From NCBI RefSeq assembly GCF_963678975.1, contig NC_089285.1, forward strand, positions 12,151,725 to 12,215,724: a DNA stretch of 64,000 nucleotides, given 5' to 3'. Origin of the DNA: Dysidea avara (lineage: Eukaryota). Both the position numbers and the translations under genes were made by a program. The notes below the pieces were generated by a model that was not told the origin of the DNA, did no database searches, and saw only the letters and a list, made by a program, of their open reading frames with translations. Below are positions 8,215 to 60,673 of the stretch, in pieces (position 1 is the stretch's first letter; each line of letters opens with the position of its first letter).

Positions 8215-10243
8215 ATGGCATTTGGTGGCGGAAATGCTGCCAGTATCAAAGTGGAGAGTATGGACACAACACAAAACACTTCATTCAGTAAGACTACAGC
8301 TCGGACTATAGCTGTTGATAAAGGAGTAAGCAGTTCTGCGGTGAAGATAGACACTACCACAGCCACTATTAAGGAAGACAGTGATGTAGTTAGCCAGACA
8401 AGGTCGGGATCAGCACCAGTGTCAGTGATCAGTTCAGCACAGTCACTGGATCCATCAAAGAAAGATTCAGGTTAGTATAAACATGCCGTTTCTGAGAACT
8501 AGCTTCTGAGCTAATGGTAGCATCTCATACAAGCTCTACTTTCTGTGTTCACTCTCCAGTGCCTAACTAGTAAAGTTGATAATCTAAAATACTGTCTGAT
8601 TACTGCTAATTTCTATTGTAGGGTTGCAATCTTCAGAATATCCAAGAACATGTTAATTTATGGGACTCTTTTACATCAAATGAATAGCTATGATGTTTTA
8701 CAGAACACTAGATGTAGTATAACTATAGCTAGTAGCAAGAGTTAGTAGCTAGCATATTAAAAACCACGAGTGTGAATGGCTAATGATGAACACCTTATTG
8801 TCTGTGGAGTATCATAGCTGAAACTGTTTAATTGCAGCTTGTAGGGCATATAATCTGGCTTGATGACTACAGCATACTTAATGACTTTCTCAAAATATAG
8901 TGTTGAATAGTCTTTGTTTGTAATACTAACAATCATCCATCCTTCATTGTTTCTTTAAACAACCTCCAGTAACCATTACCAAGGTCATGTTAGAATAGTT
9001 CATACATCCAGAGTCTCAAAGGCTAATATTTTGTGCGTTTTCCAATCTTTTTCACATGACATAAACAATGGTGTCCTTTAAATATCATTCTTCTGAAGAC
9101 CTCTATAGCCAATTTCTTAGTGAAGTATATAGAGGGCTTATATACAAAGCACATGTAACATTGTTACAAAAACAAACACTGAAGAACTATAATTTTCCAA
9201 TATATGATGCATGCATGCCACACTGAATGCAAAAATTACACACATCAGTGTTAACAGGCAAGCACACCACAACTGGGTACCTCCAGCTCCGTTTTGCAGC
9301 CATCTTAAGAGCACTGCATGTGTGTAATTGCAAACTGCATACAAGTTCAAAATTTTCAGAAGGGTACTGCAAGCTGTTGACAGGAAAAGTGTATGTATTC
9401 TAATATGTGTATGAACTCCATCATTATCCTATTAAATAGGGACCTATAGATCAGAACAGGAAATTTACTATTGAATTGTTCCTCTCGACTGCTCTAGAAA
9501 TAGTTCATATTTTGCCAGTGCTCAGAAGTTACCATACTGCTATTTATTTTAGAGGGCAAAATTTATGATTTACAAATGACTTACATAGATTTTCCATTGC
9601 TTAAAAGTTGTGTGACTATTTTTGTAGTGTGTGTACATCTGCCATGACAGCTCATGGTCAATCATCTCTTCAAAATCATCCCACTTCACTAGCAATTAAG
9701 AAATACAACTGTCACTAAGCAACACAACACTGATGTTGCTTAACTATGCTTTCATATGCACAAATCAATGTAAAGAAATAGTGTTTTAATACAGTACATT
9801 GTACATTGGTATAGTCAAATTCTATTTATCTGTAAAATGTGCATTGAATATGAAAACAGTATACATTTCATGAATTGATTCATAAGCCAATAGACCAGTA
9901 GGCACTCACGCATTACACCAAGGTACTCCATTTTGTTAGTTCAGTTTTGTGATCAACATTCACTTGTTTGTTTTCAGCCTCTAGGGATGCATACTTTGCT
10001 GTGAAGTACAATGCTCTCCTTGCCAACATCGCCGAGGTGGGTCGAGATGTTAAACCAGCTTACACCAATAACAAATCATCCAGTGAAAGATTAAGAAAAA
10101 GTATGTTCATGTAAGATGACAAATATTGTATTAATGATTTATTTCGCAGATATAGTCTTGACCAGAAATACTATCAGAGATTTGATGATAGAATTAGAAA
10201 AATACAGTCGCATTGCAGAAGAGAACGATTCTGGAATGTGACA
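8215..10243 (+). CDS. unassigned protein-coding gene, 2-3 exons
   Basis: Exon 1 at 8215-8471 (MAFGGGNAASIKVES...SKKDSG, donor gttagt). Exon at about 9979-10037 or extended to 10100 (ASRDAYFAVKYNALLANIAE[VGRDVKPAYTNNKSSSERLRK]). Terminal exon at about 10157-10243 (IVLTRNTIRDLMIELEKYSRIAEENDSGM stop). Splice phase between the last two exons is unresolved. A palindrome CGCCACTGTGGCG sits at 8052-8064 in the upstream region. Confidence 0.3.
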
Positions 10244-10294
10244 ACAATTAATGATCATACATCTCCATATTCATTCATGTCATTATTATTATTA

Positions 10295-11962
10295 TTATAC
10301 AGTTATAAGTGGATCATGATCCTTTAGTGATAGTGAGATCTTGATGTCACTCCCAAGTGCCTGTTGTAGATTATCCTTTATCTTGGCAAGGTATCCCCTC
10401 TCAGTGTTGCTGTGTTCACACAGTATGACTGACATCCCTCTTGAGGTGGCATCCAGTACTTCATGATGGGACATCTCCCCAGTTAGGTAGACATCTGCTG
10501 ATACACCACACAGTACTGATGCACCTATAGAGCAATACACATCATCACTAGAATGATCCTTTAGTCTGTGACATAACACCAGGTGCATTCTCATACACCA
10601 GTTGGGTGAACTTAAAAATACTTAGCGGTAGGTCTACTTGGCAGGGTAGCCAGTATACCTTTGTGAGTTACAAAGACTTCAAGATGTTTATTTTAAAATC
10701 AGAGATTGAGCTAGGTTCCCCCTCATGTCAAGTTTTATTTTAGCCACATAATTTTGATATAACTTCAAGGAAATGGTGAACCCCTTGCACAGCACTAACA
10801 TGTTGCTAACCTGATCCAGCACAAACAGCAACTGATTTAACCATAAATGAATCTTCACAGTTTCTGCCTCTTGCCAGTCTAATAGAAGGTAACCCGAGGT
10901 AGTTCTTCACTCTAACCACAAACTCAGACAAGCTGACTGGAGTGTTCAGTAATAATTTTCTCCCGACACCAGAACCCTTTGTGTTCTCCTGTGTACAGTG
11001 GTACACAGTAGATAGTATGGACCACATCAACATACAGGTACATACACAAGATGTACTACAATTATTTACATGACTGTATTCAGCTCACTTTAGCAACTTG
11101 TGATATTGAAATATTTTGTGAGGTCAATTTTCCACACAGTAGTGTATACACTTGTGATAGTCTGTCAAGTCTACACCTCACCAACACTTCATAGGATGAG
11201 TCATCCCTATTTCACAGTTACATGTAACTCATAATAGCCAACATGCAAGAGTGCACATGTGTTTGACATTTACCTTACTGACACCGATACATACGTACAA
11301 ACACAAACCTTTCACAATGTAATATAGTTTAGAGTTATAGTGTACCTCAACTTCTTCACTAGTTTTCCACCACATAGAGCTACTTCATCACTCATCACTT
11401 CACACATTTCACTGCTCACATGTTCTGCTCTCACTTCATACGATGGAGGCGTTGGTTGAAGAGGTGTACACTCCCCCTCACCCAGGCCTGCTGCTAACCA
11501 GTCGTTAACACCTCCATACACACTATCTGCCGCAGTGTGTGGTGAATAGATAGCAATTCTAGACTCTACAGCCTTGAGGATAATCCTCTCTTTAGCTGTC
11601 CTTCTAGTTAACGACTTTAATGGCTTGAATATTGGTGGATGATATGCGACAATGAGGCCAACTTGTGGGCTAGCAGCCTGTACTTCATCCATCACATCTT
11701 CAGTGAGGTCGTTAGTCATCATGATATGGCTGACTGGTTGTTCCTGACTACTAGGCTCCACCAGTAGTCCCACGTTGTCCCAGTTCCCTGCTAAACTAGG
11801 AGGGAACATTTCGTGTAGTCTCGTGACTATTAGCTGCAGCTCCATACTGCAGTGGTGGTAGTCTCGTGCACGCGTCAAACTGCCGAACTGTACAACTGGT
11901 CTAGATGATGCAACCCGAAGTAGTAGCTGTGAACAATTTCTGAGAAGTGTAGCTCCCAGCAT
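10295..11962 (-). CDS. NIF3L1: NIF3-like protein 1 (NIF3/YqfO family), 3 exons
   Basis: Exon 1 at about 11348-11962 (MLGATLL...AGNWDNVGLLVEPSS...HIMMTNDLTEDVMDEV...VAYHPPIFKPLKSLT...IYSPHTAADSV...GVNDWLAAGLG) has the NIF3 signature GNWDNVG. Exon 2 at about 10806-11005 (...IRLARG...KSVAVCAGSG). Exon 3 at 10295-10570 (GASVLCGVSADVYLTGEMSHHEVLDATSRGMSVILCEHSNTERGYL...DPLITV stop). The match to human NIF3L1 runs along the whole length. Confidence 0.9.
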
Positions 11963-13741: not shown

Positions 13742-16700
13742 TTAAAGTGTGTTACGAGTAATTTGACACTGAAATGTGCGAATTTCCATTGGGTTGAGTG
13801 TGACAGACAAGTCATCTTGCAAGTGATTAACAACCTTCTTTGAACCTTTGTATTGATCTGCAACAATACACAAACATCACTTACATCAAGGAGATTTTTA
13901 TCACAATATATGGCATGGTTAGATACATAGAAAGTACAGTAGTGATAAAACTCTTATCAAATAGTGCAAACACATGACCTACCTGATTCATCAGTAGGAA
14001 GTGTTCGCCACTTCAGTCTGTCAACATTAGACAAATTCTCATTTCCTCCAAGTATCAGCTCATCACAACTGTTTATTACAAAGTTGGTAAACAAATCCTA
14101 CAAGGAAATATGTGCTAGCTATTATTTGACCACTATATTAGAGCAGTACAGTTACTACAGTATATGGAAAAGTAAAGGAGAAAGACAAGAATATGATGAA
14201 CTTGTTTGCACTACCTATCCAGCACTCTATGAGGAGGCACTCATCTTTTATTGTGAATCCTGTAACAGCTAACAGAAATTGAATACACTCATGGCTGTTG
14301 CTATTCATATAGCTGAATAAAATTATACGTATAAATTTGTACATGTGCTCACAGATACAGTCTAAAAGGAACTAAAAGCAATGACTGTTACTGTGATATC
14401 AAATCTTGAACGTGTCGCTGAAGATATTCCCAGTTGATATAGGGAAAATTGAGATTATATAGTTACAGTAGTGTAGTGAAGGTGGCTTACAAGACTGCAA
14501 TCACACAACTCTCTGGGGTTGATACAGAGATAGAGTTCAATAGAGTATCCAGGTATTAATGTGTGCTCAGTTGCTAGTTATGGATACAGAGACAAAGATG
14601 TGATTGATAAGAACTACTGAGATCCCCTCAAACTAGATCTAGTTGATATTTCACCTACAGTTTAGGTTTGCAATACTCCCAAGACCCAACATTAGGGAGG
14701 TTAATCACTTCTTCCAAACTGCACTGGAGCTGTGCAAGTTAAATATTTATACGCCCCCTGTACCTGGTGGCTTTTTCAAACCTCTTGATATTCAGTGGGA
14801 TGACTTGTTGGCTTTTTAGCGGAAACAAAAGATCAGATTTTGAGTAAACTGAGTCGTCTGCCCTTGAAACAGGTTATATCGTATAGGGACCATGTTTTTT
14901 CACGGGACATCTGAGTAGTGTCTTGTTCCCAGTATAACAGAACAGTCTTACATTCTAATAAAGCAGTCAGGTGTGAACACAAATAATACCTTTCACATAC
15001 ATAGTAATCTCTTTTTCTCTTTGTGCGATATGTTATGAGAACATTTTAGCACAAGCATTTTTGCAAAATTATCTGGCCTAGTGAACGCATTCTCATGGGT
15101 CAACCACAGCACACTCATCATGTGTTCCATTGTTAGAGGGTTGTGATAAAATAACACGCTACAAGTTGTACATACCTCAATATTCACTGTGGCTGGCACT
15201 GACAGAGTTTTATCTTCTCTCACTTCATACTGGTGTTCAAGACGTAAGAGTATTTCAGTGTCCGTAACATATTGCAAGGTGAGAAGACGGACATTGGCTG
15301 GGAGTTCGGTTGCTAGGCCTTTGTACTGAGAATACAAATCACCACCCATAACACATAATATGATTTAATCATTGTATACTTACTTCTGTATTGTATGACT
15401 GTACATATTCTTCAGGGGTTATGGTACTTCTATGAAATATCATCATCGCAGGAAGAAGCATTTCCTCCCCAACACTGCGGTGTATTCTAGCTGAGTTCTC
15501 TATTGTATCAACAACTAGTAAGTTAGTCCCTCTGACTATCAGACCATCTCCAAACTGTCCCGTCTCATTCAAGTGTTCCCCAACACTGTCATCATTTAGT
15601 AAACGTCTATGTACCTGGTAGTATATACACATCAATGTACTGCACACACATACACACACATTTCTACAGACATACCATTATTTCAAGACTTCCGTCTCTT
15701 AAACTTGAGCCTCCATGGGAGCGATCAGTAAGAACAGTAACCTGGGATTTAGCTGTCTCATCCTAAAGATATTAAAATTATTTCTTAGCTACACACATGT
15801 ACACATACTTTATACACATATTCATTTGCACACGTACAAATACAACACACACACAATCACACACCCTAATAAATATTCTGCTATTTATAGGATAATAGTT
15901 GCCAGCAATTGGTGCAGTATTATTCCACACCCATGTCTGTCGGCCACCAAGACTGCATAACAAACACACTCAGATTATACATATACACTATAGACTGTTT
16001 AATATTTCAGTTACTTTCTTAGTTGCATTTCACGACCATTAGCATCAGTGTACCACTGCTTCATAGTGCTCAGGTCTGTATCATAATAGCTGATGACTTC
16101 TTTACCCTTCTTATCACTGTGTAAATAATTGTGATACAGTAGTACTAATCTTACTGTTAGCAGGGACTGCTAGTACATACCTTTGTGGTAATGGTCCTAT
16201 TGTGTACTCCAGTTCAATGTATTCAACTGTCTCATATAGTCGTATTTGTTGACCAACATAAGTTCCAAAATCTTGCCATACCTCTTGTACTACAGGTCCC
16301 TACAATAGCCACTGTAACACTTTGTTCTATTGGATATGAGTACAGACATACCTTCAACAAACTGGCAATAGCAAAGTTATCATTTTCGTTAATGTCATAG
16401 ACATTTGATGAATTAGGACGGAAGACATATGCATTTGAGGTCTAAGTGAATTAACAACATACATGTATGGTATGGTAATGTCAGTCATGTGGGCATGTAC
16501 ATAGAGCATACATGCATGCATGCATACACATGTGCACTCACACATAGACACACAAAAGCTTTTAGCTACCATGCTAGCATGGTCACACTACCTAGTGGAT
16601 CAGCATTGGTACACCTGTGTGCTACTCGGGTGCTAGGAGTCGGTGCAGGCAAGGGCAGGATTACCATGTCTCACAATTGAAGATGTGGGCACCCGAAGTT

Positions 16701-34525: not shown

Positions 34526-35428
34526 ATGGCAACTTTGACATCCAACCTCGCATCCAGCTTTAAGTACGTGCCTAAACACAAAGAAATTAGTGAGAAGGAA
34601 ATAAGGAGATTGAAAGAGTTTATTGCAAAATCTTCTAGACTATTCGTATTGACAGGGGCCGGCGTGTCAACCGAATCTGGCATAAAGGACTACCGGTCAC
34701 AAGGGGTAGGCCTGTACCACACATCTCAACACAGACCAATGCAGCACAGTGAGTTCATTAAGAGTGAAGCTGCTCGCCAGCGATACTGGGCCAGGAATGC
34801 TGTTGGGTGGCCCATCTTCAGAGAATTTCAACCCAACATAATCCACAGTTACTTAGCAACCCTTGAGAACCAAGGAACATTACATTGGCTGGCCACTCAG
34901 AACGTAGACAACTTACACTACAAGGCTGGCTCTAGGAAAGTCACTGAACTACATGGTACAGTGTATGCTGTTGTATGCTTGAACTGTCATGCTGTCATCT
35001 CGAGGGATGCTATGCAGGAGAAGATCAGTGCTAGTAACCAGGGATGGACAGCAGCAATGTTGGAGGAAGCACCAGATGCTGATGTGGTCATTTCTGAAGA
35101 TGCTGTTAAAAGTTTTGTAACTCCTTCCTGTGATAATTGTGGTGGTATTCTTAAACCAAATGTAGTGTTCTTTGGAGGTTCAGTCAATAAGAGAATCGTG
35201 GACCTGATCAATAGTCAGATTAGTGTAGCAGATGCTTTAATTGTATTAGGGACTTCAGTGCAAACCTACTCAGCTTTGAGACATGTGAAATATGCCAACA
35301 TGATGAGCATACCTATTGGGATTGTAAATATTGGACCAACTCGTGTAGACAGCCTTGCTAACTTCAAGATATCTAGTCGTTGTGGTTATGTGTTTGGAAA
35401 GATTCTCAGCCCTGGAGCTTGTGTTTGA
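34526..35428 (+). CDS. SIRT4: NAD-dependent protein deacylase sirtuin-4, single uninterrupted 300-codon ORF (intronless)
   Basis: The translation matches human SIRT4 throughout: LFVLTGAGVSTESGIKDYRS, QRYWARNAVGWP, LATQNVDNLHYKAGSRKVTELHG, Zn-binding cysteines CLNC...CDNCGG, KPNVVFFGGSV, VNIGPTRVD...KISSRCG. Confidence 0.9.
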   Translation: MATLTSNLASSFKYVPKHKEISEKEIRRLKEFIAKSSRLFVLTGAGVSTESGIKDYRSQGVGLYHTSQHRPMQHSEFIKSEAARQRYWARNAVGWPIFREFQPNIIHSYLATLENQGTLHWLATQNVDNLHYKAGSRKVTELHGTVYAVVCLNCHAVISRDAMQEKISASNQGWTAAMLEEAPDADVVISEDAVKSFVTPSCDNCGGILKPNVVFFGGSVNKRIVDLINSQISVADALIVLGTSVQTYSALRHVKYANMMSIPIGIVNIGPTRVDSLANFKISSRCGYVFGKILSPGACV

Positions 35429-41500: not shown

Positions 41501-43246
41501 TATATTACCATTTTACAGTTAATTTAATTACTCCTGGGTCCTGACCACCTAATACAACCTTACCATATAAATCATGAGTTGAGGTATAGTCAGTGTTGGG
41601 AGTAACGCATTACTTATGTAATGCGTTACGTAATATTATTACTTTTGTGGTAACTAAGTAATATAACAAAATACGCTATGTGTCTTGTGATGGAACAAAA
41701 TACAAAACAAAGCCCACACAATTATAGTGAAAAATCAGACCTGCTGGCATGGGGCTTTGAGACTGGTTTCCCAGTCATGGATGAATACGTACTGTGTACT
41801 TTTTCTCTGGCCAGGCTCATTATTCAGCACAGAAATGTGCAATGATCATGGGAATTGGAATGGATAATGCAGTTACCATCAAATGTGACTCAAGGTATTG
41901 ATATGGTATAGTAACTACGTACTGTCATATGGTTGTTGTTGAAGGGGTAAGATGATTGTTAGCGAGTTGGAGAAAGCTGTGACAAGTGTTAAGAAGGAAG
42001 GGAAGTGTCCTCTAGCTGTGATAGCTACTGCAGGGACCACAGTTATGGGAGCATTTGACCCCCTCACTGAAATTGCTGCTGTGTGTAAAAAGCATAAAAT
42101 GTGGATGCACATTGATGTGAGTATTTTCGTATGACAATTTCTTGTAGCACAGAATCCAAGTTTCTAAATTTTGCCTATCTGATCACTATCTGGTGCTCAT
42201 ATTAGCCAAAGCATTTTGCAAGTACTATTTTTAAAACACTCTAATAGAGCAGTCACTTTGTCATTTGGTTGACTAATAATTAGATGCCTGCATGTAGCCA
42301 GCTATTGATTGTAACAGTACCTATTTTATAGGGTGGATTTTGCATTATATATTAGCATGTTTTGTGTTGTATGTTGTAGGCAGCTCTGGGAGGGTCTGTG
42401 CTTGTATCTGAAAAACACAAGTGTCTTTTAAAAGGAGCAGAATTGTAAGTACATTTACATCAACGACATACTACTCTGCATATCACACACATAAAAGTTC
42501 AGTTTGTTTACGTGCACTTTACTGTATAAATGGTCCTCTTACCACTGTAGATCTGATTCACTGGCTTGGAATCCTCATAAAGCTTTAACAGTACCACTGC
42601 AGTGTTCAGGGTTCATTACTAAACATAAGGGACTACTAGCACAGTGTAACTCTGCACATGCTAACTACTTGTTCCAGCAAGACAAGCGCAGTTATGATGT
42701 GTCTTACGATACTGGTGACAAGTCCATCCAGTGTGGACGACTAAATGATGCCTTCAAAATCTGGCTCATGTGGAAGGCTAAGGTATGCCATGGTAGTTTA
42801 GCTGTTCACTATTATGGTCCATTACAGGGCAAGGTTGGGCTGGCGAGGCAAATAGACAAGGCAATAGGCAACACAAAATATATGGCTGAACAAATCAAGA
42901 AGAGAGATGGATTTGAACTAGTATCTGAACCAGAGTACACTAACTGCTGTTTCTGGTACTATCCACCATCCATGAGGGGGCCTACACCTCCTGACCCTCA
43001 CAAACTCACCAAGGTAGTGACATATACTACTGCTAGTCTTATTAACACACGTACCTGTTGATGTAGGTTGCTCCAATAATCAAGGACCTTATGGTAAAGT
43101 CAGGCAAAATGATGATCACCTATACCCCACTGGGTGACAAGCCTAACTTTTTCCGTATGGTCACTATCTCACCATTATCCACTGAAAGAGATATGGATTT
43201 TGTGCTTGATGAGATTGACCGCCTTGGTCGTGACCTTGCGTTTTAG
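35561..43246 (+). CDS. PLP-dependent glutamate / cysteine-sulfinate decarboxylase-like gene (GAD/CSAD/GADL1 family), 11 exons
   Basis: Plus-strand exons:
- 35561-35794: MMEATSLD...ELLNALDFALPDEGQSPEQILDYVKKVMEFSIQAG
- 39130-39226: HPRYFNQLYSGLDETGIIAQMVSAATNTS
- 40478-40586: YTYEIAPVYTTIERIVIEKMCSLVGYSETDGIFSPG
- 40838-40888: GGSISNLYGLMCARHQ
- 40920-41024: FPEVKKTGVHSLPQLVIFASEQ
- 41795-41890: HYSAQKCAMIMGIGMDNAVTIKCDS
- 41943-42118: GKMIVSELEKAV...ATAGTTVMGAFDPLTEIAAVCKKHKMWMHID
- 42373-42444: AALGGSVLVSEKHKCLLKGAE
- 42551-42782: SDSLAWNPHKALTVPLQCSGF...YDTGDKSIQCGRLNDAFKIWLMWKAK
- 42828-43013
- 43067-43246: VAPIIKDLMVKSGKMMITYTPLGDKPNFFRMVTISPLSTERDMDFVLDEIDRLGRDLAF stop
The match to vertebrate CSAD/GAD is collinear and includes the PLP-lysine region NPHK. 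Confidence 0.85.
36225..37075. repeat. large near-perfect inverted repeat (arms about 380 bp at 36225-36605 and 36690-37075, loop about 85 bp) inside the 4.6-kb first intron of the GAD-like gene
   Basis: The ORF track shows the same 67-88 aa peptide (MSLDSSRLWDFGH(R/Q)VSAFSASLSGGSSPAKSFPTNTYNR(K/E)KQSIHGHSPSTYQTCIQSTVFYLKVVE) on both strands (36295-36498 plus, 36809-37075 minus). Direct reading confirms reverse-complement arms with only a few mismatches. Confidence 0.9.
38195..38300. repeat. minisatellite built from TACGATTCCC(TCGAAT) units
   Basis: cgattccctcgaattacgattccctttacgattacgattacgattcccccgaattacgattccctcgaattacgattcccgattccc read directly. Confidence 0.8.
39651..39885. mobile_element. 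MITE family C, second copy (reverse orientation) in GAD intron 1
   Basis: GGAAACCTTGGTGGAGCTAAACTTTGGCGAATAGCCAG...CCAAAGTCTTTCCCTGCAAAGTTTCCTTCTATACCGTAT is homologous to 27998-28195. Confidence 0.6.
39900..40230. mobile_element. MITE family B, partial or diverged copy in the GAD intron
   Basis: Shares ...TTACTTGCAACAAAAAACTATTTAGTTACATATTACC...ATATTACATATTACACACTACTTTATAAGCTGTCACGTG...TAGGCATTACTCAGATTAGTAATGAGATTA with 22955-23470. Confidence 0.5.
41086..41680. mobile_element. MITE family B, full copy (41086-41610) plus an abutting inverted terminal fragment (41590-41680) in a GAD intron
   Basis: CCCAGTGTTGGGACAGTTACTTTTTAAAAGTAACTAGTTACATATTACATATTACTTGCAACTGAACTATTTAGTTACAGTTACATATTACCC... 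is about 90% identical to 22955-23470. It is followed by CAGTGTTGGGAGTAACGCATTACTTATGTAATGCGTTACG, which is the reverse complement of the family's 3' end. Confidence 0.7.
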
Positions 43247-48752: not shown

Positions 48753-49655
48753 CTAGTCTCCAATGCCCAATTTTAGACTAGTCTTCATTCTTTTATCACA
48801 TTGAATCTTGTGATTTACTTTGTGCCTTACTTTGTGCCTTCTGTATACACTCGGCAGCACACACACTTGCCCATGATAGTACTTTAACAAGTTCCTTTCT
48901 GTAACCAGTGCATTTGTTGGGATCTGTAGCAACAAAGCTGCCTCAATTTGTTGTCTGCAATCCATTCCAAACAAGAGAAATGAAGGCTTCTCAAGTGTTG
49001 CATCATGTGGGGTATTCCGCCCAGAGAACTCCATAGAGATATCTGTCCCAATGTAGTCCATAGGTGGCTGCCTGCTTTCTTAACATAGTCTTCAGATCAC
49101 GATTAAACCTCTCTGTGAGTCCATTGCATTGAGGATGGTAGGCTGTAATATTCAACATTTCAGTTCCCAGTATAGACTGCACACATCTTTCATTAGGTGT
49201 AACAATAGGTTGGTACCTCTGTGTGATAATAATGCTTCTGGCACACCAAACAAAAGTATAATATACTCTTCCACCAGTATTCTCACAATACATGTGGTTT
49301 TTTGATCTGGCATGGGGTATACCATTGTCAAGAAGTCCTTGGAGTACCAACACATGTTTATTACCTCTCTCTGTCTTTGGAAGATCCATAGTATCAATCC
49401 CCACTATCTGGAAAGGCCTCTGGACAGGTATTGGTTGCAAGGGAGGTATACCTCACCAGAGGAGAAGTACGTTGAGGGCAGGTCTTGCAGTGTATGGCAA
49501 CATCTGCATACATGCCATCCCACCACCAACAAGTTGTACAATCGATTGCTAGAAAAATGTCTAGCAAGGGGGCCACCGTGAACACTCAGGATTAGCTTTT
49601 CCTTAAGGTCATAATAAGGTGAGTTGGAACCACTGCTCATCTTCTTGACATGCAC
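48753..49655 (-). mobile_element. Ty3/Gypsy-type integrase remnant (HHCC zinc finger plus rve core) with frameshifts; LTR-like repeats at 47693-48330 and 49986-50100
   Basis: Minus-strand pieces: HGGPLARHFSSNRLYNLL...W..M...V..Y...C..C (49404-49655); PFQIVGIDTMDLPKTERGNKHVLV (49003-49440); FGVPEALLSHRGTNL (49152-49397); AYHPQCNGLTERFNRDLKTML and PSFLLFGMDCRQ (48753-49061). ATTGCAATATGATTGGTTACAATTAT occurs at both 47693 and 49986. TTAGTTAACGGAGACTCCG (48145) has a counterpart TTAGTTAACGTAGACTCCG (50030). Confidence 0.6.
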
Positions 49656-51699: not shown

Positions 51700-51990
51700 T
51701 CAAGAGTACATAATAAAAATAGGAAGGGAGAGTGTCTAACTGCCAATACAGCCTGTACAAAATCACTGCGTATTATTGAAAAGACAATGATCTTTGAACA
51801 AATCAACACTTTTACTGACTATAGAGATCTGTTGATAGGTGTTGAGTGCTGTTGATAGGTGTTGAATAAAGTAAAGCCTTTGCTCTACCAATGTGTGGAT
51901 GCTCTATAATACGCAGTGATTTTGGCTGAAGGTGTCCTAGTTAGACACTCTCCCTCCCTATTTTTATTATGTACTCTTGCCATAATTATA
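51700..51990. mobile_element. small inverted-repeat (MITE-like) element, arms of about 75 bp
   Basis: GTACATAATAAAAATAGGAAGGGAGAGTGTCTAACTGCCAATACAGCCTGTACAAAATCACTGCGTATTATTG (51705-51780) is the imperfect reverse complement of TAATACGCAGTGATTTTGGCTGAAGGTGTCCTAGTTAGACACTCTCCCTCCCTATTTTTATTATGTACTCTTG (51905-51985). The centre holds a direct repeat TGTTGATAGGTGTTGAGTGC x2. Confidence 0.6.
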
Positions 51991-52109: not shown

Positions 52110-52697
52110 ATGGCTGCTAATGCTGTGAGAGAAGATAACGAGATCGCCAACACCGTTCTCAGAGATATGCACAAAGAATTGGTGTTGCAGATTAACGTGG
52201 ACGAGATCACAATTCACTTGGTGTCTACCGGAATGATCACTAGCTCACAGCGCGAAACCCTACAGAATGACAGGTGCACAGCATCAAACAGAAATGTGTT
52301 CTTACTGAGTAATGTACTGGGAGGAAAAGGCTATTGGGGACTAAAAACACTGCTAGCTGCTCTAAGGGGTGATACTCTATATCAGCCACACATAGAACTT
52401 GCTAGTAGGATTGAAAATGAATATTGTGAGAGGTTGCAGCGTCCACGAAATATTGTGCAGTCGATACCTCAACCTCAATCTCATGTTAATCAGCAAGCTC
52501 CTGATCCCAGGACTGGTGAATCACCACCAAGTACCATGTCATCAATAATCTCTCCGCAGCAACTAGGTTCACAATATTGTCTGCAGTTCAATCATCCTGG
52601 AGAGTATAATGTGAAAGTCAACTGCTTACCTGATAACAGCGGACTGTCTCAATCTCATCTACAGCACAGAGATCGTAAGGTTGGTCGTAAGCCTTAA
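52110..52697 (+). CDS. single-exon CARD / death-fold domain protein (195 aa) with a Ser/Pro/Gln-rich tail
   Basis: Residues 10-95 (EDNEIANTVLRDMHKELVLQINVDEITIHLVSTGMITSSQRETLQNDRCTASNRNVFLLSNVLGGKGYWGLKTLLAALRG) follow the six-helix CARD pattern seen in RAIDD, caspase-2 and BCL10: amphipathic L/I/V spacing, G-hITxxxxExI, and KGxxAxxxLxxAL. The assignment is by pattern only and a search is needed. Confidence 0.45.
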   Translation: MAANAVREDNEIANTVLRDMHKELVLQINVDEITIHLVSTGMITSSQRETLQNDRCTASNRNVFLLSNVLGGKGYWGLKTLLAALRGDTLYQPHIELASRIENEYCERLQRPRNIVQSIPQPQSHVNQQAPDPRTGESPPSTMSSIISPQQLGSQYCLQFNHPGEYNVKVNCLPDNSGLSQSHLQHRDRKVGRKP

Positions 52698-53278
52698 TTG
52701 ATAGGACACCTCAATTTGGCATGCAGCAGAATTAGAATCAAGGGGTCCACAATTCCCTTGAAATCTCGTACAGCCCTCTTTGAAATCTTGTTGAAATCTC
52801 TAAAAATTGTTGTATTGTAAAGTTCTGTATATTTCCTATATACTTACGTATTTGCATTGTCACGTATGCTACGTCCAGCATCCCCACAAGTTTGCAGAGA
52901 ACACTTGAGAAAGAATTCCGCATATTATCATATACTATGTATCATGTGATGCTATTATTCCAGGTATCTAAGATTTCAAATGTTCTGAGACCTTGCCATA
53001 ATTGCTTGAAATCTTGAAAAAATTGCAAATATTTGAAATCTTGTACAGGATTTTTTGGAGTTGCAAACCCCTTGATTAGAATTAAAAATTGGATCAAGAT
53101 TTTTATTTAATTGACAACAATGAATCGAGCCACTGTTTCCTTGGATTGTATAACCTAAGATAGGTCTAGGATCTTGATTTGCTTTTGATACCTTTTAAAT
53201 AAGGCTTAGCTGCTTGATGACTTCAATAGTATTTATCAACTATATACCAGTTGGACACTGGAGGTTGAAAGGGGTGCA

Positions 53279-53404
<126 letters not shown>

Positions 53405-53699
53405 GTACACAGATGTTGTGTGTATTGGATCCCTTTCCAAAACACTATAATATATAATTGGCACTGTATTAACAGATATCTAGATTACAGTTTTGCTAAT
53501 CTCAGAGATTGTATTGTAACTGGATCCCAAGCATGTTTTTATGATTATGATGTGATTTGGGTTGAGGCTTAGAAGCCTGTGCACCCATTCAATTACATAC
53601 CTACACATACATAAATTAGATGCAATAAACAAAAATTAACTGTGAATATAATTATTACATTAACATAAATCTATAGTCATAAAAGTAATTATCTATAGC

Positions 53700-56064
53700 T
53701 TATTTAAAATTATTCAATGAAGAATTTCCTACAATATCACTTGTAAGATTGTTCCAGTCATTAATTACTCTAGTACTAAAATAGTTGACCCGACATGAAT
53801 GGTGAGCAGGGGGCTTAAGTAATTTATATGCATGACCTCTAGTTTGTGTATTGCGGGAAAGAGTGAAAAAGTTGGATTGAAGTAACCATTCAACATCTTG
53901 AAAAGAAATGTTAAGTCACCACATCTGTGCCTGTACAAAAGAGATGGTAAATTCATTGATGTCAGTCGATCTATGTAAGACTTGTCTCTTAAAGATGGTA
54001 CTAGTTTTGTAGCATGCCGTTGCATACCCTCAAGTTTACGTTGGTCCAATACATAATGGGGTCCTCAAATTACATTTCCATATTCTAATATTGGTCAAAC
54101 CATTGATTTGTAGAATCGTGACAGTACAAATTCATTCAAATTGATAAAGCTTCTTTTCATACAAGCCAATACCCTGTTCGCTTTCATAGCTACTTCAGAA
54201 GCGTGTTGGTGGAACTTTAAATTCGCATCAAATATAATACCCAAGTCCTTATGACAATTAACTGAGTCCAATGAGACACCATTAAGATAGTAGCCTCCAA
54301 AGCTGTGTGTGGCTTGACCAAAGTGAATCACTTTACATTTAGTAGCATTGAACTTCTGTTGCCACGCATCACACCATTTGGCTAGATTATCTAAATCAGT
54401 TTGGAGTTGTACATGGTCTGCCAATGTAGAAATGGTTCGTATAAGCTTGGTATCGTCTGCAAATAAAAACACATGACTTGAGATGGATTTCGGCATATCA
54501 TTAACATAAATAAGGAAGAGAAGAGGTCCTAGAATTGATCCTTGTGGAACGCCACTCTTCACATCTTGCCAACATGATTTTTTCCCCATTTAATACAACG
54601 CACTGTCTCCTATTGGATAGAAATCCATCAATCCATCTAAGAAGGTTGCCTGTAATTCCATAGTGTTCAATCTTATACAATAAACGTTTGTGTGGCATGC
54701 TATCAAAAGCTTTCTGCAGATCCATGTAAATAACATCAACAGGTACTCCTCGATCAAGTGATTTTGTTAAAATATCCATAACATGAAGTAACTGGGTAGT
54801 GCACGAATGGCCCTCTAATAAGCCAAACTGGTGGGATGTCAACAAGTTATTGGAGTTTAGATGTTCTATTATATTAGTTTTAATAATGAAATCCATAACC
54901 TTAACTACTGTAGATGTAAGACTGACAGGTCTACCATCGATTGGCCTGACATCATGGAGCCTATGAATACTCAAGAAGCATGGGGATTTTTCAAGACAGT
55001 ATTTCAAGATATTATTGATAAATTTGTACCACTAACAACGGGAGTAAGGAAGAAAAGAAATATTTACATGTCTCCTGAGGCATTCAGAATGAAGAAATTA
55101 AAGCGGAAATTGTGGAAAAATTATACCTTGTCCAAAGCTGACCATGACTACACAGCTTTTAAGGAAGCTAGAAATAAGTTTCGATGTCTAACAAGAAATT
55201 TAAAGATTAATCACGAACAACATCTAGTCTCTAACATTGGAAGAAGCCCTAAAAGTTTTTGGCATTATGTAAACTCAAATATGAAAACAAGATCTGGTAT
55301 TGATAGTATCCAACGTCCTGATGGTTCTGCAGCTACTTCTGATCCAGAGAAGGCTGAATTATTAAATTCATATTTCGCAAGTGTTTTCACTAATGAAAAT
55401 TTAACCAATTTTCCAGCCCTAGATCCAGAAGCTTCAGTACCAAAGTTGGAAAACATAACAATAACTGCTTCATTAGTATTTGATGAATTGAATAGGCTAA
55501 AAACAGATAAATCTCCAGGTCCAGAGGGTTGGCCTCCACGTATATTCAAATAATTTTCTGACCAACTATCAGTTCCACTGTCCGTTTTATTTAATAAGTC
55601 TTTCCAGTCTGGTGTTCTGCCATCGGAATGGAAAATTGCTTTTGTTACCCCTATTCATAAGAAAGGAAGTAAACCATCTTACATGTAATTATATGAAATG
55701 CTGCACGCATATTGTCAAAGTCAGCTCTGTTGACATTGTATCTAGGGGTGTGGTTTGGTTTGATGGTAGAATAGCAAGATAGGTGAAAACGAATGCATAC
55801 ATGATCACTATTTCCCAAGCCTGGAAGATAATCAATGTGATTGATCATATCAGCTTCATTTGTAAACACGAGGTCAAGCAAACTGGGAGTAGTGCCTGGT
55901 CTAAAACGAGTTGGTTCTTGAATGTGCTGGAATAAAAAAAGATCTTGAATAGTGTCTATGAAGGATTCAACATGAGTATTCCTTGGGTTCACTGACATGT
56001 TAGACCAAACAATATCTTTCATATTAAAATCCCCACATATCAATAAATGAGTAAAATCATTCAA
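53700..56064 (-). mobile_element. CR1/L2-like non-LTR retrotransposon (APE endonuclease, reverse transcriptase, C-terminal domain), 5' truncated, frameshifted and internally rearranged
   Basis: Minus strand: endonuclease C-terminus at 55651-56064 (LICGDFNMKDIVW...HIQEPTRFRPGTTPSLLDLVFTN...PGLGNSDHVCIRF); reverse transcriptase at 54095-55007 (RPVSLTSTVVKVMDFII...GLLEGHSCTTQLL...YMDLQKAFDSMPHKRL...; ...GVPQGSILGPLLFLIYVNDMP...FLFADDTKLI...); C-terminal domain at 53765-54049 (QRHATKLVPSLRDKSYIDRLTSMNLPSLLYRHRCGDLTFLFKM). The plus strand at 54945-55680 encodes the EN-RT linker and RT start of the same family (DWPDIMEPMNTQEAWGFF...DKSPGPEGWPPRIFK...LSVLFNKSFQSGVLPSEWKIAFVTPIHKKGSK), inverted relative to its flanks. 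Confidence 0.85.
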
Positions 56065-58566
56065 TTCTTCCAGTAAAGTACAAAGTGAGGATGTTTAGGC
56101 CAAGAATTTCACATATCATTATAGTCATCGGTTATTGTTGCATGGCACCAGTGCTATTGGACTGTTGTCTCTTATCGTATTTTGTAAGAATAGATTTTCC
56201 CTCTGTTTTAAGCAGATGAAGGGATTATCGAATGAAGATTGTTACTGTATGAATTGTATATAATTATCAGGTTATTATCAAGTCACTTATTTAATGTGTT
56301 TTTTAGGATACATCTGAGAGTCATGATGATAGCGACTTTTACTCCTCTTGTCATTCCTCACTAACATCACTATCTGTGAGTGTAATGGTCATCACTAAGA
56401 AAGTATTTATGCTTACAGTGTATATATATATATAAGTGACTAGAATTCTTTTTTTGGGAGAGTTTCACTGTTTTAAGTAAATTCTATGTTTCAGGCTCAA
56501 TATTTTCCTTACTGAATGCTTCAAATTTTCTTTGTGAAAATGTTTACAAAGCCAACCCATATTAAATTTGTACAAAAGTTTTTATAATGTACGTACTACC
56601 GGTATATATAGTTTTACCACTGTGATAGTAATGCCCTTTCAGTGATGTTATTTCTTCCTAGCAACCAGCAAGGACAAAATTACCACCCACAACAGCATTG
56701 CGGAGACCAGCTAATTTAGCTGAGACTGTCTCAATGGCTGTGTTACAGAAGGTGATCTTATGTATGTGTAGTTGTCATTTGAGTAACTACAATTATTATT
56801 TACTATTAAGCTTCTTACCGTGCATTGCAATGAAAAAATATACTCTATCTACTGCTATAGCATTTACCATTTACCTCACTTTGAAATAGCTTTTGTTCTG
56901 TTGCCATTGCTAACATTTTATGTAAATACATGCATACAAATTTCGAGGAATATAGATTCTGTGAGTAAGTACAATGGTTTCTCAGTTTAAATGGATTTAA
57001 CAATCAAGGATTACTCCTATCCCACATAGAAATGCTTTTAGCATGGAGAAAGAAAATTTTTTAGACAGCAATGGAATAATATACATCCTAGTAAATGCAG
57101 TACCAAGAGTAGTAATCTCTATTGATAGTACTGTGAAACCTTATTAATAAGGCCACCTATGGAACTATAAATTTTGGCCTAGCTTGATAATAATGAAGTG
57201 ACCTTATTGAGGAGGGAATGAAGTATACTTCAGCTGTGTAGGTGGTTGCTATTAGGCTGCAGGATTCCCCCAATGCAACATAATAGTCAGGGTGTAGCCA
57301 AAAAAGTTTAGTAGACAAGGCACACTTGTTAGCGTCAAGGTAGGTGACTGCCCTATTAGAGTATTTCAATCATTTGCAGAGCTAAACTTTCTTCATTTAA
57401 TTTTTTTGGGAGATATTTAAGTAAAAACCCATCGTAAGAAAGATAACAAAATAGGTTATTGAGATAATAGTAAATCTTTGTAAATCAATCATAGTCAGAT
57501 GGAAAACTTGTGGAAAGATGTCAGATTAGTTGAGGTTGAGGAAGTGAAAATTTTTCTGCACTATGTGACTTTATGTCAACTGTATTTACAATACCGTCCT
57601 ATGATGTCACATCAGTATATTTTATCAAGATTATTGAAATAAAATGGTTGTACATCACACAACCCCAACCAAGGCAGCGTCTCAATGGAAGCTATACTAC
57701 TGCTATATATATATACATACTGAAAACTGTTTGCAACTATTATTTATAATGCTTTGACAGGCCATAATAAAGATACACCATATATAATGTATCACGCAGC
57801 CAAGAAACTCCTGTGTAGGCACTCAACAGACAAAGTGTGTATTAAGAAAGTGCAGTTTTTATGCATCCACAGATTTCAGGTATGGAAGGTTTGTACTGCA
57901 AAAGTGGTTCATGCATTACTAAGCTGATATTTGCCTTCAATGTTTGTGTTTTTCTTATTCTTCTTACTTAGAAAATTTGTCAGAACACACGTAACCTTTT
58001 TGATTCTCTTCAAGCTTTGAGAACATATTACAGTAAATTTGTAACCCAAAGTTCATTTGGGTTGGTAAAATGTTACCCATGATTTTAGAAAAATCAATTG
58101 CAATTTGTTTTCATGCCTACTATACCTAAGCCGCCGACAAAGCTAGCTAAATTTTCTTGCATTCCTCAAGTAAAGTATTGAGGTACTATCTCTTTCAAGG
58201 AATTGTAATCAAATCAATGATCAAGGAGTTATAACAGCATTTGTAACAAGCCTACAGGCTGCTATCAATAGTGGGATTTATTGTCATGCCTACCACACAC
58301 TGTACCACCACTGTTAATATGTCAATTACAATGAACACACATACATACTCACATATATATGAAAAGAATCATAGCCAGTCCTCAGTGTTGTATCCATGAG
58401 GAAACTGTTGCCATGCCTGGATAGACTGTGTAGAGAGGTAGGATGGAAATGTAATTAAGCCAGTTTGTTTTGGTGACTATGTATCATTCAATCTACTGGA
58501 GACTAAATCTGATAATGTGACTATAAATATGTTAACTAGCATGAGAAACTACAAGAAGCACGAGAT

Positions 58567-60673
58567 ATGAAAATCATTCTGGTGGGAGACTCCTCCGTAG
58601 GGAAGACATCTATTATTCTTCAATATATATTTGGGGAATGTGGAACTCCAAAGCCAACTGTATCCTTTTGACAAATATTTGTATGTGACATAGACACCCA
58701 CAAGTGTTACAGTATTTTATGCAGTACTTTCCAAGTACATAATAATGAATCAAAATTATTTCGTTTATGAAAATGAAATATTTATAACTATCTTATTTGA
58801 CTTTGTGGATTTAATTATTATCGTATTTGAAGAATTAAAGCTTATTCCAGTCTGAGTGGTACTAAAATGCACCCACATAATTCCCTAGACTACAAAAATA
58901 ACACCTATACACAAATTGACAAAAAAGTTTATAAAGTAGACCCCATCATTACCATAATCCTTGAGACTAAGGCCATTGTTGATGCCCAACTCACTATACC
59001 ACCTCATCTCTCTATTATATACTACAACAAATGAGAGACAAAAAATACTAAGTAGGAAGACAAATGGAAAATATAAATCACTTTGCCACACAACGATAGC
59101 AGTCCATTCACAGATACCACAAGGGAGTGAACTGGTTTATAGTGCCATTGACAGTCATTAAGTTTTCTCCATTAACTGTGCCCTTATCGATGACGAGTCC
59201 AAGTGGGGCACAGGGGGGCACGTCCCTCTTCTCAATAAAGCTACAAGCAAAACTTCAAACAAGATCAAGATACTCTAATAGAGTAGTACTCTAACAGTCA
59301 CCGCATGTAACACTATTAGAACTTTCCATGCATGCACAGTTGCTGAGTATATATACAAAAACTGGTATCTGCAGCACCATCCCATGGGTCTGCTAGGAAT
59401 TTTGCAGATGTAATGCACCTGGTCCTTTGTATGCCTTTTATTTGACAATAGGATCATAATCAAACTACTTATAACTGTCACTGATCCGTACAACTCTTGA
59501 TTGATGTAGGCCACTTAGAAAGCATTATTACTATACATATATTAGATATTTGTGTACAGTAAAATTTTCAATCATGAAACATATACTTCTGGGGGACTGT
59601 GCCCCACCCCCACTCCATATACCTACTATCCTAGTGCACCTACTAGTATATCCTAGTATACCTACTATCCTTGCCAAACCCTGAATCTGCTCCTGCTTAT
59701 GGCTATACTCAAACTCATGAGTTGGGTGTCAATAAATATGCAGTAGACACTAGCAAGTTATACCAGTTGTTGACTTATATACTGGTTAGTGTGGCACTGG
59801 CTACTTCACTCAGTATGTACATCACAAAGAGAAGAACATCAATGTAAAGTTGTACCTGTGGGACACTATGGGACAGGAGAGATTCAACTCTATTACTGCA
59901 GTGAGTGATCTTTCTGTAATAAGAACCAGTTGTGTTCTGCATTCATTACTGTATGGTTGGGTTAGCTAATTATTTATTTACTGTGTATCAACTCTCCACC
60001 AGCTGTAGTTATATGTTATCCTAGATTCCTACGTATAATTATGACGTTGTATATTCTGTAGAACGTTTACAAAAAAAGTGATGCTGCTGTAATAGTGTTT
60101 GACCTGGTGTCAGAAAACACACTCAATTCAGTACACTGGTGGCTCAAGCAGCTGCACGACAGATTGCCTTCAGAGAAAAGGAACATTCCAGTTGTTCTGG
60201 CAGGAAATAAGGTCTGGATTTATAACATACTTAATGAATCTTGTCTGTGGAGCATATCATAGGTGAAAGTGTTGATTCCCAATTGTAACAAGCTTGCCAT
60301 GCAGTTGTAATTATGTTACACAGTAAACTACCTGCGTGGTTTCTATTCAGTGCATGTGGCCTAACATATACTTTTCCACTGTAGAGTGACTTGCTACCTT
60401 CTGAACATGCAAACATTAAGAGGAAGGCTAGACAAAAAGCTTTTGATCTTGAAATGAAAGACTTCATATTGGTGTCTGCAGTGACTGGTTTTGGTATGGA
60501 TGAGCTGTTTGGAAGAGTAGTGACTTTGGTAAGACCCAAACTTGTTTGCCTGTTTTACATTTGAAATCTTTATTATATTCTAGGCTCTGGACAATGCTAC
60601 TAGTGAAGAATCAGAAAATGTAATACATGTAACAGGAACAGTTGATGCCAATAAAAAATCTTGTTCATGTTAG
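58567..60673 (+). CDS. Rab-family small GTPase, at least 5 exons, C-terminal KKSCSC; closest in pattern to the large-Rab (CRACR2A / RASEF / Rab44) GTPase domain
   Basis: Plus-strand exons: 58567-58659 (MKIILVGDSSVGKTSIILQYIFGECGTPKPT, the G1 P-loop); 59813-59899 (YVHHKEKNINVKLYLWDTMGQERFNSITA, G3); 60062-60210 (NVYKKSDAAVIVFDLVSENTLNSVHWWLKQLHDRLPSEKRNIPVVLAGNK, G4); 60383-60530 (...FILVSAVTGFGMDELFGRVVTL, G5); 60590-60673 (ALDNATSEESENVIHVTGTVDANKKSCSC stop). No canonical switch-I exon (TIGVDF) was found between exons 1 and 2. Candidate upstream exons at 56304-56375 and 56661-56751 could add an N-terminal extension. Confidence 0.55.

Follow-up and report, generated by a model that had tools for sequence, protein, structure and literature searches.

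The 195-codon open reading frame (ORF) at 52110..52697 (+ strand) of the window, i.e., the whole 64,000-nt stretch of DNA that was analyzed, is, with a probability of roughly 0.8, the first exon of an eight-exon gene of the demosponge Dysidea avara, which encodes a caspase-recruitment domain (CARD), a disordered linker, a Rab-type GTPase, and a CSC tail. Taken by themselves, the gene structure and the CARD–linker–Rab architecture are held with high confidence. The initial annotation had described a stand-alone, single-exon CARD protein, to be compared with those of deuterostomes and cnidarians. The frame itself was placed correctly, running from ATG to TAA at exactly these coordinates, but the organism is a sponge, the gene contains seven GT-AG introns at positions common to a paralogue and a homologue, and exon 1 splices to seven more exons encoding a Rab-type GTPase. 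The gene is thus neither intronless nor a CARD-only adaptor, the latter candidate having been rejected because exon 1 is joined to GTPase exons in an architecture that is conserved.

The length of the ORF is only suggestive of coding potential: although just 0.013 stop-free runs this long are expected in 64 kb at the window GC content of 37.6%, 1 of 20 mononucleotide shuffles gave a 193-codon run. The GC content of exon 1 is 44%, compared with 35.6% for the flanking intron. A word-indexed search of 5.8 billion proteins recovered five relatives of the 195-aa ORF at 69–77% identity, and this conservation, together with a dN/dS ratio of 0.07–0.14 for the CARD (first 108 codons, versus two homologous loci), identifies the ORF as real coding sequence; the start Met is kept in all homologues. 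Cluster analysis grouped the ORF with the RefSeq protein XP_065891881.1 (447 aa), annotated as "uncharacterized protein [Dysidea avara]," which is identical to the ORF through K190 and then extends beyond it. All 447 aa of this protein could be placed on eight segments of the window (52110..60673, + strand), with all seven introns being GT-AG and phase 0 and every exon length divisible by three. As a practical caution, a eukaryotic first exon with a long ORF can mimic a complete small gene.

The position at which the ORF and the gene part company is marked by the homologues themselves. The six close homologues are invariant at K190-V191 (AAG/GT) and unrelated beyond, and this break in homology falls at AAG/GTTGGT (52679/52680), which is a splice donor, while the read-through tails of the homologues vary from 5 to ~38 residues with unrelated sequences. 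The segment 52680..52697 (+), where homologue conservation has ended, comprises the GTTGGT donor (GT confirmed), the codons for VGRKP, and the stop, and these last five ORF codons are predicted to be read-through into intron 1. Exon 1 (52110..52679, +; 570 nt) corresponds to aa 1–190 of XP_065891881.1 and carries the start codon, the CARD (aa ~8–104; 52131..52421, +), and most of the linker. It is followed by a 3,627-nt intron 1 (52680..56306, +), by exon 2 (56307..56375, +; 69 nt), which encodes an acidic, Ser-rich part of the linker (DTSESHDDSDFYSSCHSSLTSLS), and by exon 3 (56662..56751, +; 90 nt), which encodes a Pro/Thr-rich part. The Rab GTPase begins in exon 4 (58540..58659, +; 120 nt), where the G1 P-loop GDSSVGKT lies within the motif block IILVGDSSVGKT (58573–58608, +). 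Exon 5 (59790..59900, +; 111 nt) provides switch I and G3/switch II (WDTMGQE; motif block 59850–59885), exon 6 (60062..60211, +; 150 nt) provides the core beta-sheet and the GNK(SD) of G4, exon 7 (60385..60528, +; 144 nt) completes G4 (SD) and carries G5 (SAV), and exon 8 (60584..60673, +; 90 nt including the stop) encodes a hypervariable tail ending in KKSCSC and the stop codon, with the CXC di-cysteine at 60662–60670. The exon 1–exon 2 junction is predicted from the RefSeq model and from comparative evidence. A lookup of the exact 447-aa product across the contig collection, aimed at intron-less transcript contigs, returned no match.

Comparison with related loci allowed the fusion to be assessed independently of the RefSeq model. 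A paralogue on the same contig (L002; RefSeq XP_065891884.1, 449 aa), ~27 kb downstream of the window gene, and a homologue in a JGI metagenome (L003) share its exons and exon boundaries. Specifically, exon 2 is 71–81% conserved with AG/GT boundaries in both, while exon 3 is weakly conserved in L003. The L003 gene also lies downstream of a pyridoxal-dependent decarboxylase gene, as does the window gene (decarboxylase exons at 42504–43061, + strand), so the two are syntenic. In six more distant loci, drawn from five other assemblies, the CARD exons are only ~30–37% identical to the window CARD; here the CARD, G1 (GxxxxGK[ST]), G3 (DTxGxE), and G4 (NK) occur in order on one strand, often in head-to-tail arrays. 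Across all loci, 15 CARD exons had sufficient sequence downstream to be evaluated, and Rab exons follow 12 of them; the three exceptions are the second L004 CARD, the leading member of the consecutive CARD pair in L005, and L007. The donor-exact end of homology, the shared exon boundaries, and the recurrent CARD–Rab order all argue for the fusion. A full-length word-indexed search (8,000 candidates scored, mostly ordinary Rabs) returned no CARD–Rab protein outside the Dysidea-like clade, and cluster lookups returned no annotated full-length protein for 18 more distant family members.

These data bear directly on an improbable alternative, namely that the ORF encodes a stand-alone CARD-only regulator, either because RefSeq wrongly merged adjacent genes or because intron 1 is retained or polyadenylated to give a 195-aa isoform (...HRDRK-VGRKP). 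Since the frame closes only five codons past the donor, an unspliced transcript would yield a compact CARD-only protein, and mammalian large Rabs do have short isoforms lacking the Rab domain, e.g., CRACR2A-S (PMC8303950). The double CARD ahead of a single Rab exon set in L005 and the CARDs of L004 and L007 that lack detectable downstream Rab exons point the same way. However, it is the donor position that is conserved and not the read-through tails; exon 2, although downstream of the donor, is conserved with proper splice boundaries; the CARD-then-Rab order persists down to ~30% CARD identity; and there is no obvious reason why unrelated gene pairs should stay collinear across tandem arrays. 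We consequently retain the eight-exon fusion gene as the preferred reading.

Several further observations were made on the organization of this family. An orphan exon 7–8 fragment lies between the window gene and its paralogue (L002:644-871). Between these two D. avara paralogues, dS is 0.205 for the CARD part of exon 1 and 0.725 for the GTPase exons, a difference that points to gene conversion restricted to the CARD exon. The L003 GTPase is nearer to that of L002 (dS 0.37) than to that of the window gene (dS 0.73), despite L003 sharing the decarboxylase neighbor of the window gene. In L005, CARD exons at 9956–10567 and 13755–14501 precede one Rab exon set (from 17097), and they could represent alternative first exons that supply different CARDs to one GTPase, or else the first CARD could be an orphan. 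In both L004 and L009 (assemblies ERZ25069711 and ERZ25084387), an antisense asparaginase gene lies upstream of the CARD–Rab array, and the array position therefore seems syntenic between the two hosts.

The initial annotation assigned the N-terminus to the CARD or death-fold class, and this assignment stood: the region is helical over ~100 aa, with six predicted helices, and is CARD-like in profile searches. Pfam CARD (PF00619) matched aa 16–87 of the 195-aa ORF with an E-value of 3.9e-4, but the score of 20.8 bits (18.9 bits within the 447-aa protein) is below the gathering cut-off of 23.9, so that the match expected by the initial annotation exists without passing the Pfam threshold. Searches of PDB sequences with the single sequence and with a shallow profile of six close homologues produced no significant CARD match. 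A profile of the exon 1 family was then run exhaustively with HMMER against 1.84 billion representatives and yielded ~35 further relatives of the first ~110 residues. Pfam CARD was detected at an E-value of ≤0.01 in 15 of the 41 aligned family members (best, 6.1e-9), and no other family recurs. When the 35-sequence domain profile (A3) was compared with PDB sequences, all 38 matches were CARDs or CARD-template designs, with the best being RAIDD (3.9e-7) and caspase-9 (3e-6) and the others including ASC, Apaf-1, CARD9, CARD11, CED-3, CARD8, caspase-1, ARC, and ICEBERG; only this deeper profile gave significant PDB CARD matches.

Structure prediction is consistent with this assignment, within the limits of the models. 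AlphaFold with a six-sequence alignment of the exon 1 product gave a low-confidence model (mean pLDDT 47.7) with helices at residues 2–27, 30–40, 45–52, 58–69, 75–84, and 89–109 and disorder from residue 111, whereas the full-length single-sequence model (pLDDT 39.6) was unusable. The six helices form, in this low-confidence prediction, the antiparallel bundle of the death-fold superfamily, and CARDs made up 16 of the top 17 Foldseek matches to it (target-normalized TM 0.44–0.65, E ≥ 0.04). Thus, the two findings on which the initial annotation had staked the domain, a death-fold match and a six-helix bundle, were both obtained, the latter in the low-confidence model. We conclude that the N-terminus is a CARD-class death-fold domain that is divergent enough to miss the Pfam threshold.

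The region that follows (aa ~110–190) had been described as a low-complexity S/P/Q tail. It is predicted to be disordered (pLDDT <50), in keeping with that description, but it is also constrained and contains invariant blocks. Two blocks, PDPRTGES (aa 131–138 of exon 1) and Y-x-L-x-F-x-x-P-G-x-Y-x-V-K-x-N (aa 156–171), are invariant in all six close homologues (window positions 52500–52625, +), and, together with the linker dN/dS of 0.38–0.45, they show that the linker is more than low-complexity sequence. Overall, ~150 aa of disordered linker are predicted between the CARD and the Rab domain. The second block was drawn as a short strand in the unusable full-length single-sequence model. We recognized no known motif in either block, and inspection by eye for TRAF-binding or RHIM-like motifs in these conserved blocks produced no convincing match.

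The C-terminal half of the protein contains a Rab-type small GTPase domain (aa ~250–420), matched by Pfam Ras at aa 254–417 with an E-value of 5.6e-31. All 60 of the PDB matches listed for the GTPase are Rab/Ypt proteins (Ypt51, 2e-23; Rab6B, Rab5C, Rab22A, Rab7, and Rab11), and by sequence match the closest relatives are Rabs and not Ras, Rho, Arf, or Ran. The G motifs are present (G1 GDSSVGKT, G2 Thr in PTCGTGYF, G3 WDTMGQE, G4 GNKSD, and G5 SAV), with two unusual substitutions, from Ala to Met in G3 and from Lys to Val in G5. By eye, the RabF motifs KLYLW, RFNSIT, and IVFDLV are recognizable, while RabF1 and RabF4 are degenerate. The C-terminus KKSCSC is a canonical di-cysteine CXC, a predicted prenylation motif of the kind used by Rabs for double geranylgeranylation, whereas L002 and L003 end in CRYRC/CRYQC, which is non-canonical for a Rab. 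The named relatives among the 8,000 candidates scored (Rab37, Rab44, Rab34, Rab6B, RASEF, and CRACR2A/EFCAB4B) show 28–38% identity with near-equal scores across several subfamilies, with no clear orthology to any canonical subfamily (Rab1–Rab45), and the C-terminal half is thus classed, from such sequence comparisons, as a Rab that is not assignable to a canonical subfamily. The GTPase exons have a dN/dS of 0.17–0.19; both the CARD and the GTPase domain are under purifying selection. In several family members, the Gln of G3 is replaced (DTAGLE, DTAGKE twice, and DTAGTE), and one member has DTADQE (sites L008:15546, L009:13661, L010:4267, L006:10047, and L005:17544), while the motif reads DTMGQE in the Dysidea-like clade. 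In Rabs, a change of the Gln to Leu is the classic mutation that abolishes GTPase activity and locks the GTP-bound state, and some natural paralogues may for this reason be constitutively "on."

We also examined the surroundings of the gene, which the initial annotation had placed between transposable element debris and a LINE and had read as a young or retroposed copy. The LINE in fact sits within intron 1 of the gene. It is a degraded, frame-shifted element of endonuclease plus reverse transcriptase (53765..56064, − strand), antisense to the gene, with Pfam matches to RVT_1 (9.6e-13 and 1.3e-11) and Exo_endo_phos_2 (3.1e-15). Intron 1 measures 3,627 bp in the window gene but 878 bp in the paralogue L002 and 990 bp in the homologue L003, which marks the LINE as an insertion specific to the window copy and uninformative about retroposition of the gene. 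A processed gene copy was rejected on the grounds of the seven GT-AG introns shared with the paralogue and the homologue. The 2.3-kb LINE is thus a passenger outside the coding gene, and it enlarged intron 1 together with a (CA)n microsatellite.

Other features of the window were noted in passing. The upstream debris includes an integrase fragment (rve_3, E = 3.6e-4) at 49003..49440. A MITE-like element of 279 bp occupies 51701–51979, its end lying ~130 bp ahead of the start codon. Its 41-nt terminal inverted repeats are 98% complementary, a further inverted pair lies inside them, and the arm sequence is absent elsewhere in the window. A 230-aa ORF at 54861–55553 (+) overlaps the minus-strand LINE and has no Pfam match, although by eye it resembles a LINE endonuclease-RT linker (...KSPGPEGWPPRIFK); a LINE-like ORF on the + strand inside an antisense LINE points to inversion of part of the element or to nesting of a second one. 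(CA)n/(TG)n microsatellites at 53270–53400 (within intron 1), ~4100, ~19300, ~27600, and ~29550, among others, generate spurious Cys-Val/His-Thr repeat ORFs. The exons of a NIF3-like gene lie at 11312–11962 (− strand). An uninterrupted 300-aa ORF at 34526–35428 (+) equals D. avara sirtuin-4 (XP_065891818.1) exactly and is thus apparently a genuine single-exon gene.

The insertions raise the question of whether the window gene is a decaying, LINE-disrupted duplicate of a tandem family on its way to becoming a pseudogene, which we consider very unlikely. The 2.3-kb LINE, the nearby MITE-like element, and the orphan exon 7–8 fragment between the paralogues would fit such decay, as would the GTPase exons, which are the most divergent of the three copies (dS 0.73 to both others versus 0.37 between those). 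However, the eight exons all remain open, every GT-AG site is intact, both domains have dN/dS values well below 1, the catalytic motifs and the canonical CXC tail are intact, and the LINE is intronic and antisense. The evidence favors a gene maintained by selection over one in decay.

How such a protein would act can be proposed tentatively, namely as a nucleotide-gated, membrane-tethered CARD adaptor. The di-cysteine tail would be geranylgeranylated and would place the GTP-bound Rab domain on a specific endomembrane, with endosomes or phagosomes as plausible sites; the flexible linker of ~150 residues would present the CARD to the cytosol; and the CARD would engage other CARD proteins by homotypic contacts. 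Either a CARD signaling complex would be concentrated on a vesicle or phagosome, or Rab effectors would be brought to an activated CARD platform. CARDs in general act through homotypic assembly with other CARDs. Candidate partners exist in D. avara, for which a census reports 39 CARD genes that Pfam detects, 20 of them encoding CARD-NACHT-LRR receptors (PMC12909245). An immune or cell-death role of CARD–Rab would be an extrapolation from CARDs in other animals.

A trafficking role offers a somewhat doubtful alternative, in which a lineage-specific Rab uses its CARD for self-association or effector docking, much as Rab44/45/46 use their coiled coil, and the CARD has no immune or cell-death function. 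The nearest GTPase relatives include the large Rabs Rab44, CRACR2A/EFCAB4B, and RASEF, whose N-terminal modules regulate localization and motor coupling (PMC8303950). In addition, the CARD is a divergent subtype below the Pfam threshold, the family forms its own clade, and the present analysis provides no direct tie of CARD–Rab to caspases or NLRs. Against this, the closest solved structures in the profile search are the CARDs of RAIDD, caspase-9, ASC, and Apaf-1, and the genome holds many potential CARD partners (PMC12909245). A trafficking role is also compatible with the CARD-adaptor reading, and the two are not mutually exclusive. As a matter of general knowledge, the characterized CARDs all work in apoptosis, inflammation, or innate-immune pathways, and we know of none among them that does not act there by homotypic death-fold assembly. 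If the trafficking role were correct, expansion of the family would mean a diversified endomembrane traffic in sponges, e.g., for phagocytic feeding.

Returning to the CARD-adaptor reading, we further offer the speculative proposal that CARD–Rab proteins are a tandemly expanded "large Rab" adaptor class in sponges (the other hosts being assumed to be sponges) that couples NLR/caspase signaling to vesicle or phagosome identity. If so, CARD–Rab could decide the fate of an engulfed microbe, i.e., digestion, toleration as a symbiont, or cell death, and paralogues with another residue in place of the catalytic Gln (DTAGLE, DTAGKE, and DTAGTE) would be always-on CARD platforms permanently bound to membranes. 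CARD–Rab provides a clonable handle on the route from microbe sensing to phagosome handling in a filter-feeding, symbiont-rich animal.

Searches of a full-text library returned no paper on a CARD joined to a Rab, Ras, or other GTPase, and a CARD linked to a GTPase goes unmentioned in both the D. avara NLR/immune census (PMC12909245) and the Amphimedon NLR paper. Because the sponge CARD lies below the Pfam threshold, censuses based on domain counts ("39 CARD genes"; PMC12909245) would miss the whole multi-copy family. The sequence is already predicted in RefSeq, though only as "uncharacterized." CARD–Rab combines a CARD adaptor with a large Rab, a combination of which the searched literature holds no description.

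Among known systems, the CARDs of RAIDD/CRADD, caspase-9, Apaf-1, and ASC share with the sponge protein an N-terminal six-helix domain of ~90–100 aa, and the sponge family has the characteristic L-x-x-(K/R)-G-x-x-(A/G)-(L/F) turn between helices 4 and 5. In contrast to these, the sponge CARD is divergent, scores below the Pfam gathering cut-off when taken alone, and is joined to a Rab GTPase. A CARD usually either stands alone or is combined with a caspase, a kinase, a NACHT/NB-ARC module, or a coiled coil. Death-fold domain shuffling is common in sponges. The CARD-only proteins ICEBERG, COP/pseudo-ICE, and INCA likewise have a small N-terminal CARD, and an unspliced sponge transcript would match them; however, theirs is a CARD alone, whereas the sponge CARD exon splices to a GTPase.

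On the GTPase side, Rabs, to our knowledge, almost never carry extra domains, the exceptions known to us being the EF-hand large Rabs. The large Rabs Rab44, Rab45/RASEF, and Rab46/CRACR2A-L, which rank high among the sequence matches of the sponge GTPase half, share the sponge protein's layout of an N-terminal signaling module, a long linker, a C-terminal Rab, and a prenylatable tail, and they are the closest architectural precedent. They have an EF-hand and a coiled coil ahead of the Rab domain and, in immune cells, link signaling to vesicle transport (PMC8303950). Their N-terminus is a Ca2+-sensing EF-hand plus coiled coil, whereas that of the sponge protein is a CARD; Pfam detected no EF-hand in the 447-aa protein, so that only the general layout is common to both, and the identity is only ~30–38%, with orthology not established.

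A guanine-nucleotide switch is also linked to a death-fold module in three other systems: fish GBP-CARD proteins, represented by PDB 4IRL among the A3 profile and Foldseek matches; DAPK1, which is ROC-COR plus a death domain; and the Rab39a–caspase-1 pair. The GTPase classes of the first two differ from that of the sponge protein (dynamin-like GBP and ROC), as do the domain orders, whereas the sponge protein is a covalent Rab–CARD. Rab39a binds caspase-1 in a non-covalent complex of separate proteins (PMC2787314), demonstrating that cooperation between a Rab and a CARD protein is possible. Rab39a–caspase-1 is the closest functional precedent, and the sponge gene would be its fused "Rosetta-stone" form, which predicts that CARD signaling and a Rab-marked membrane compartment cooperate in sponges. 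If this is true, a link between inflammasome-type signaling and Rab traffic that is divided between separate proteins in mammals (Rab39a and caspase-1) would have existed within one polypeptide in an animal of an early-branching lineage.
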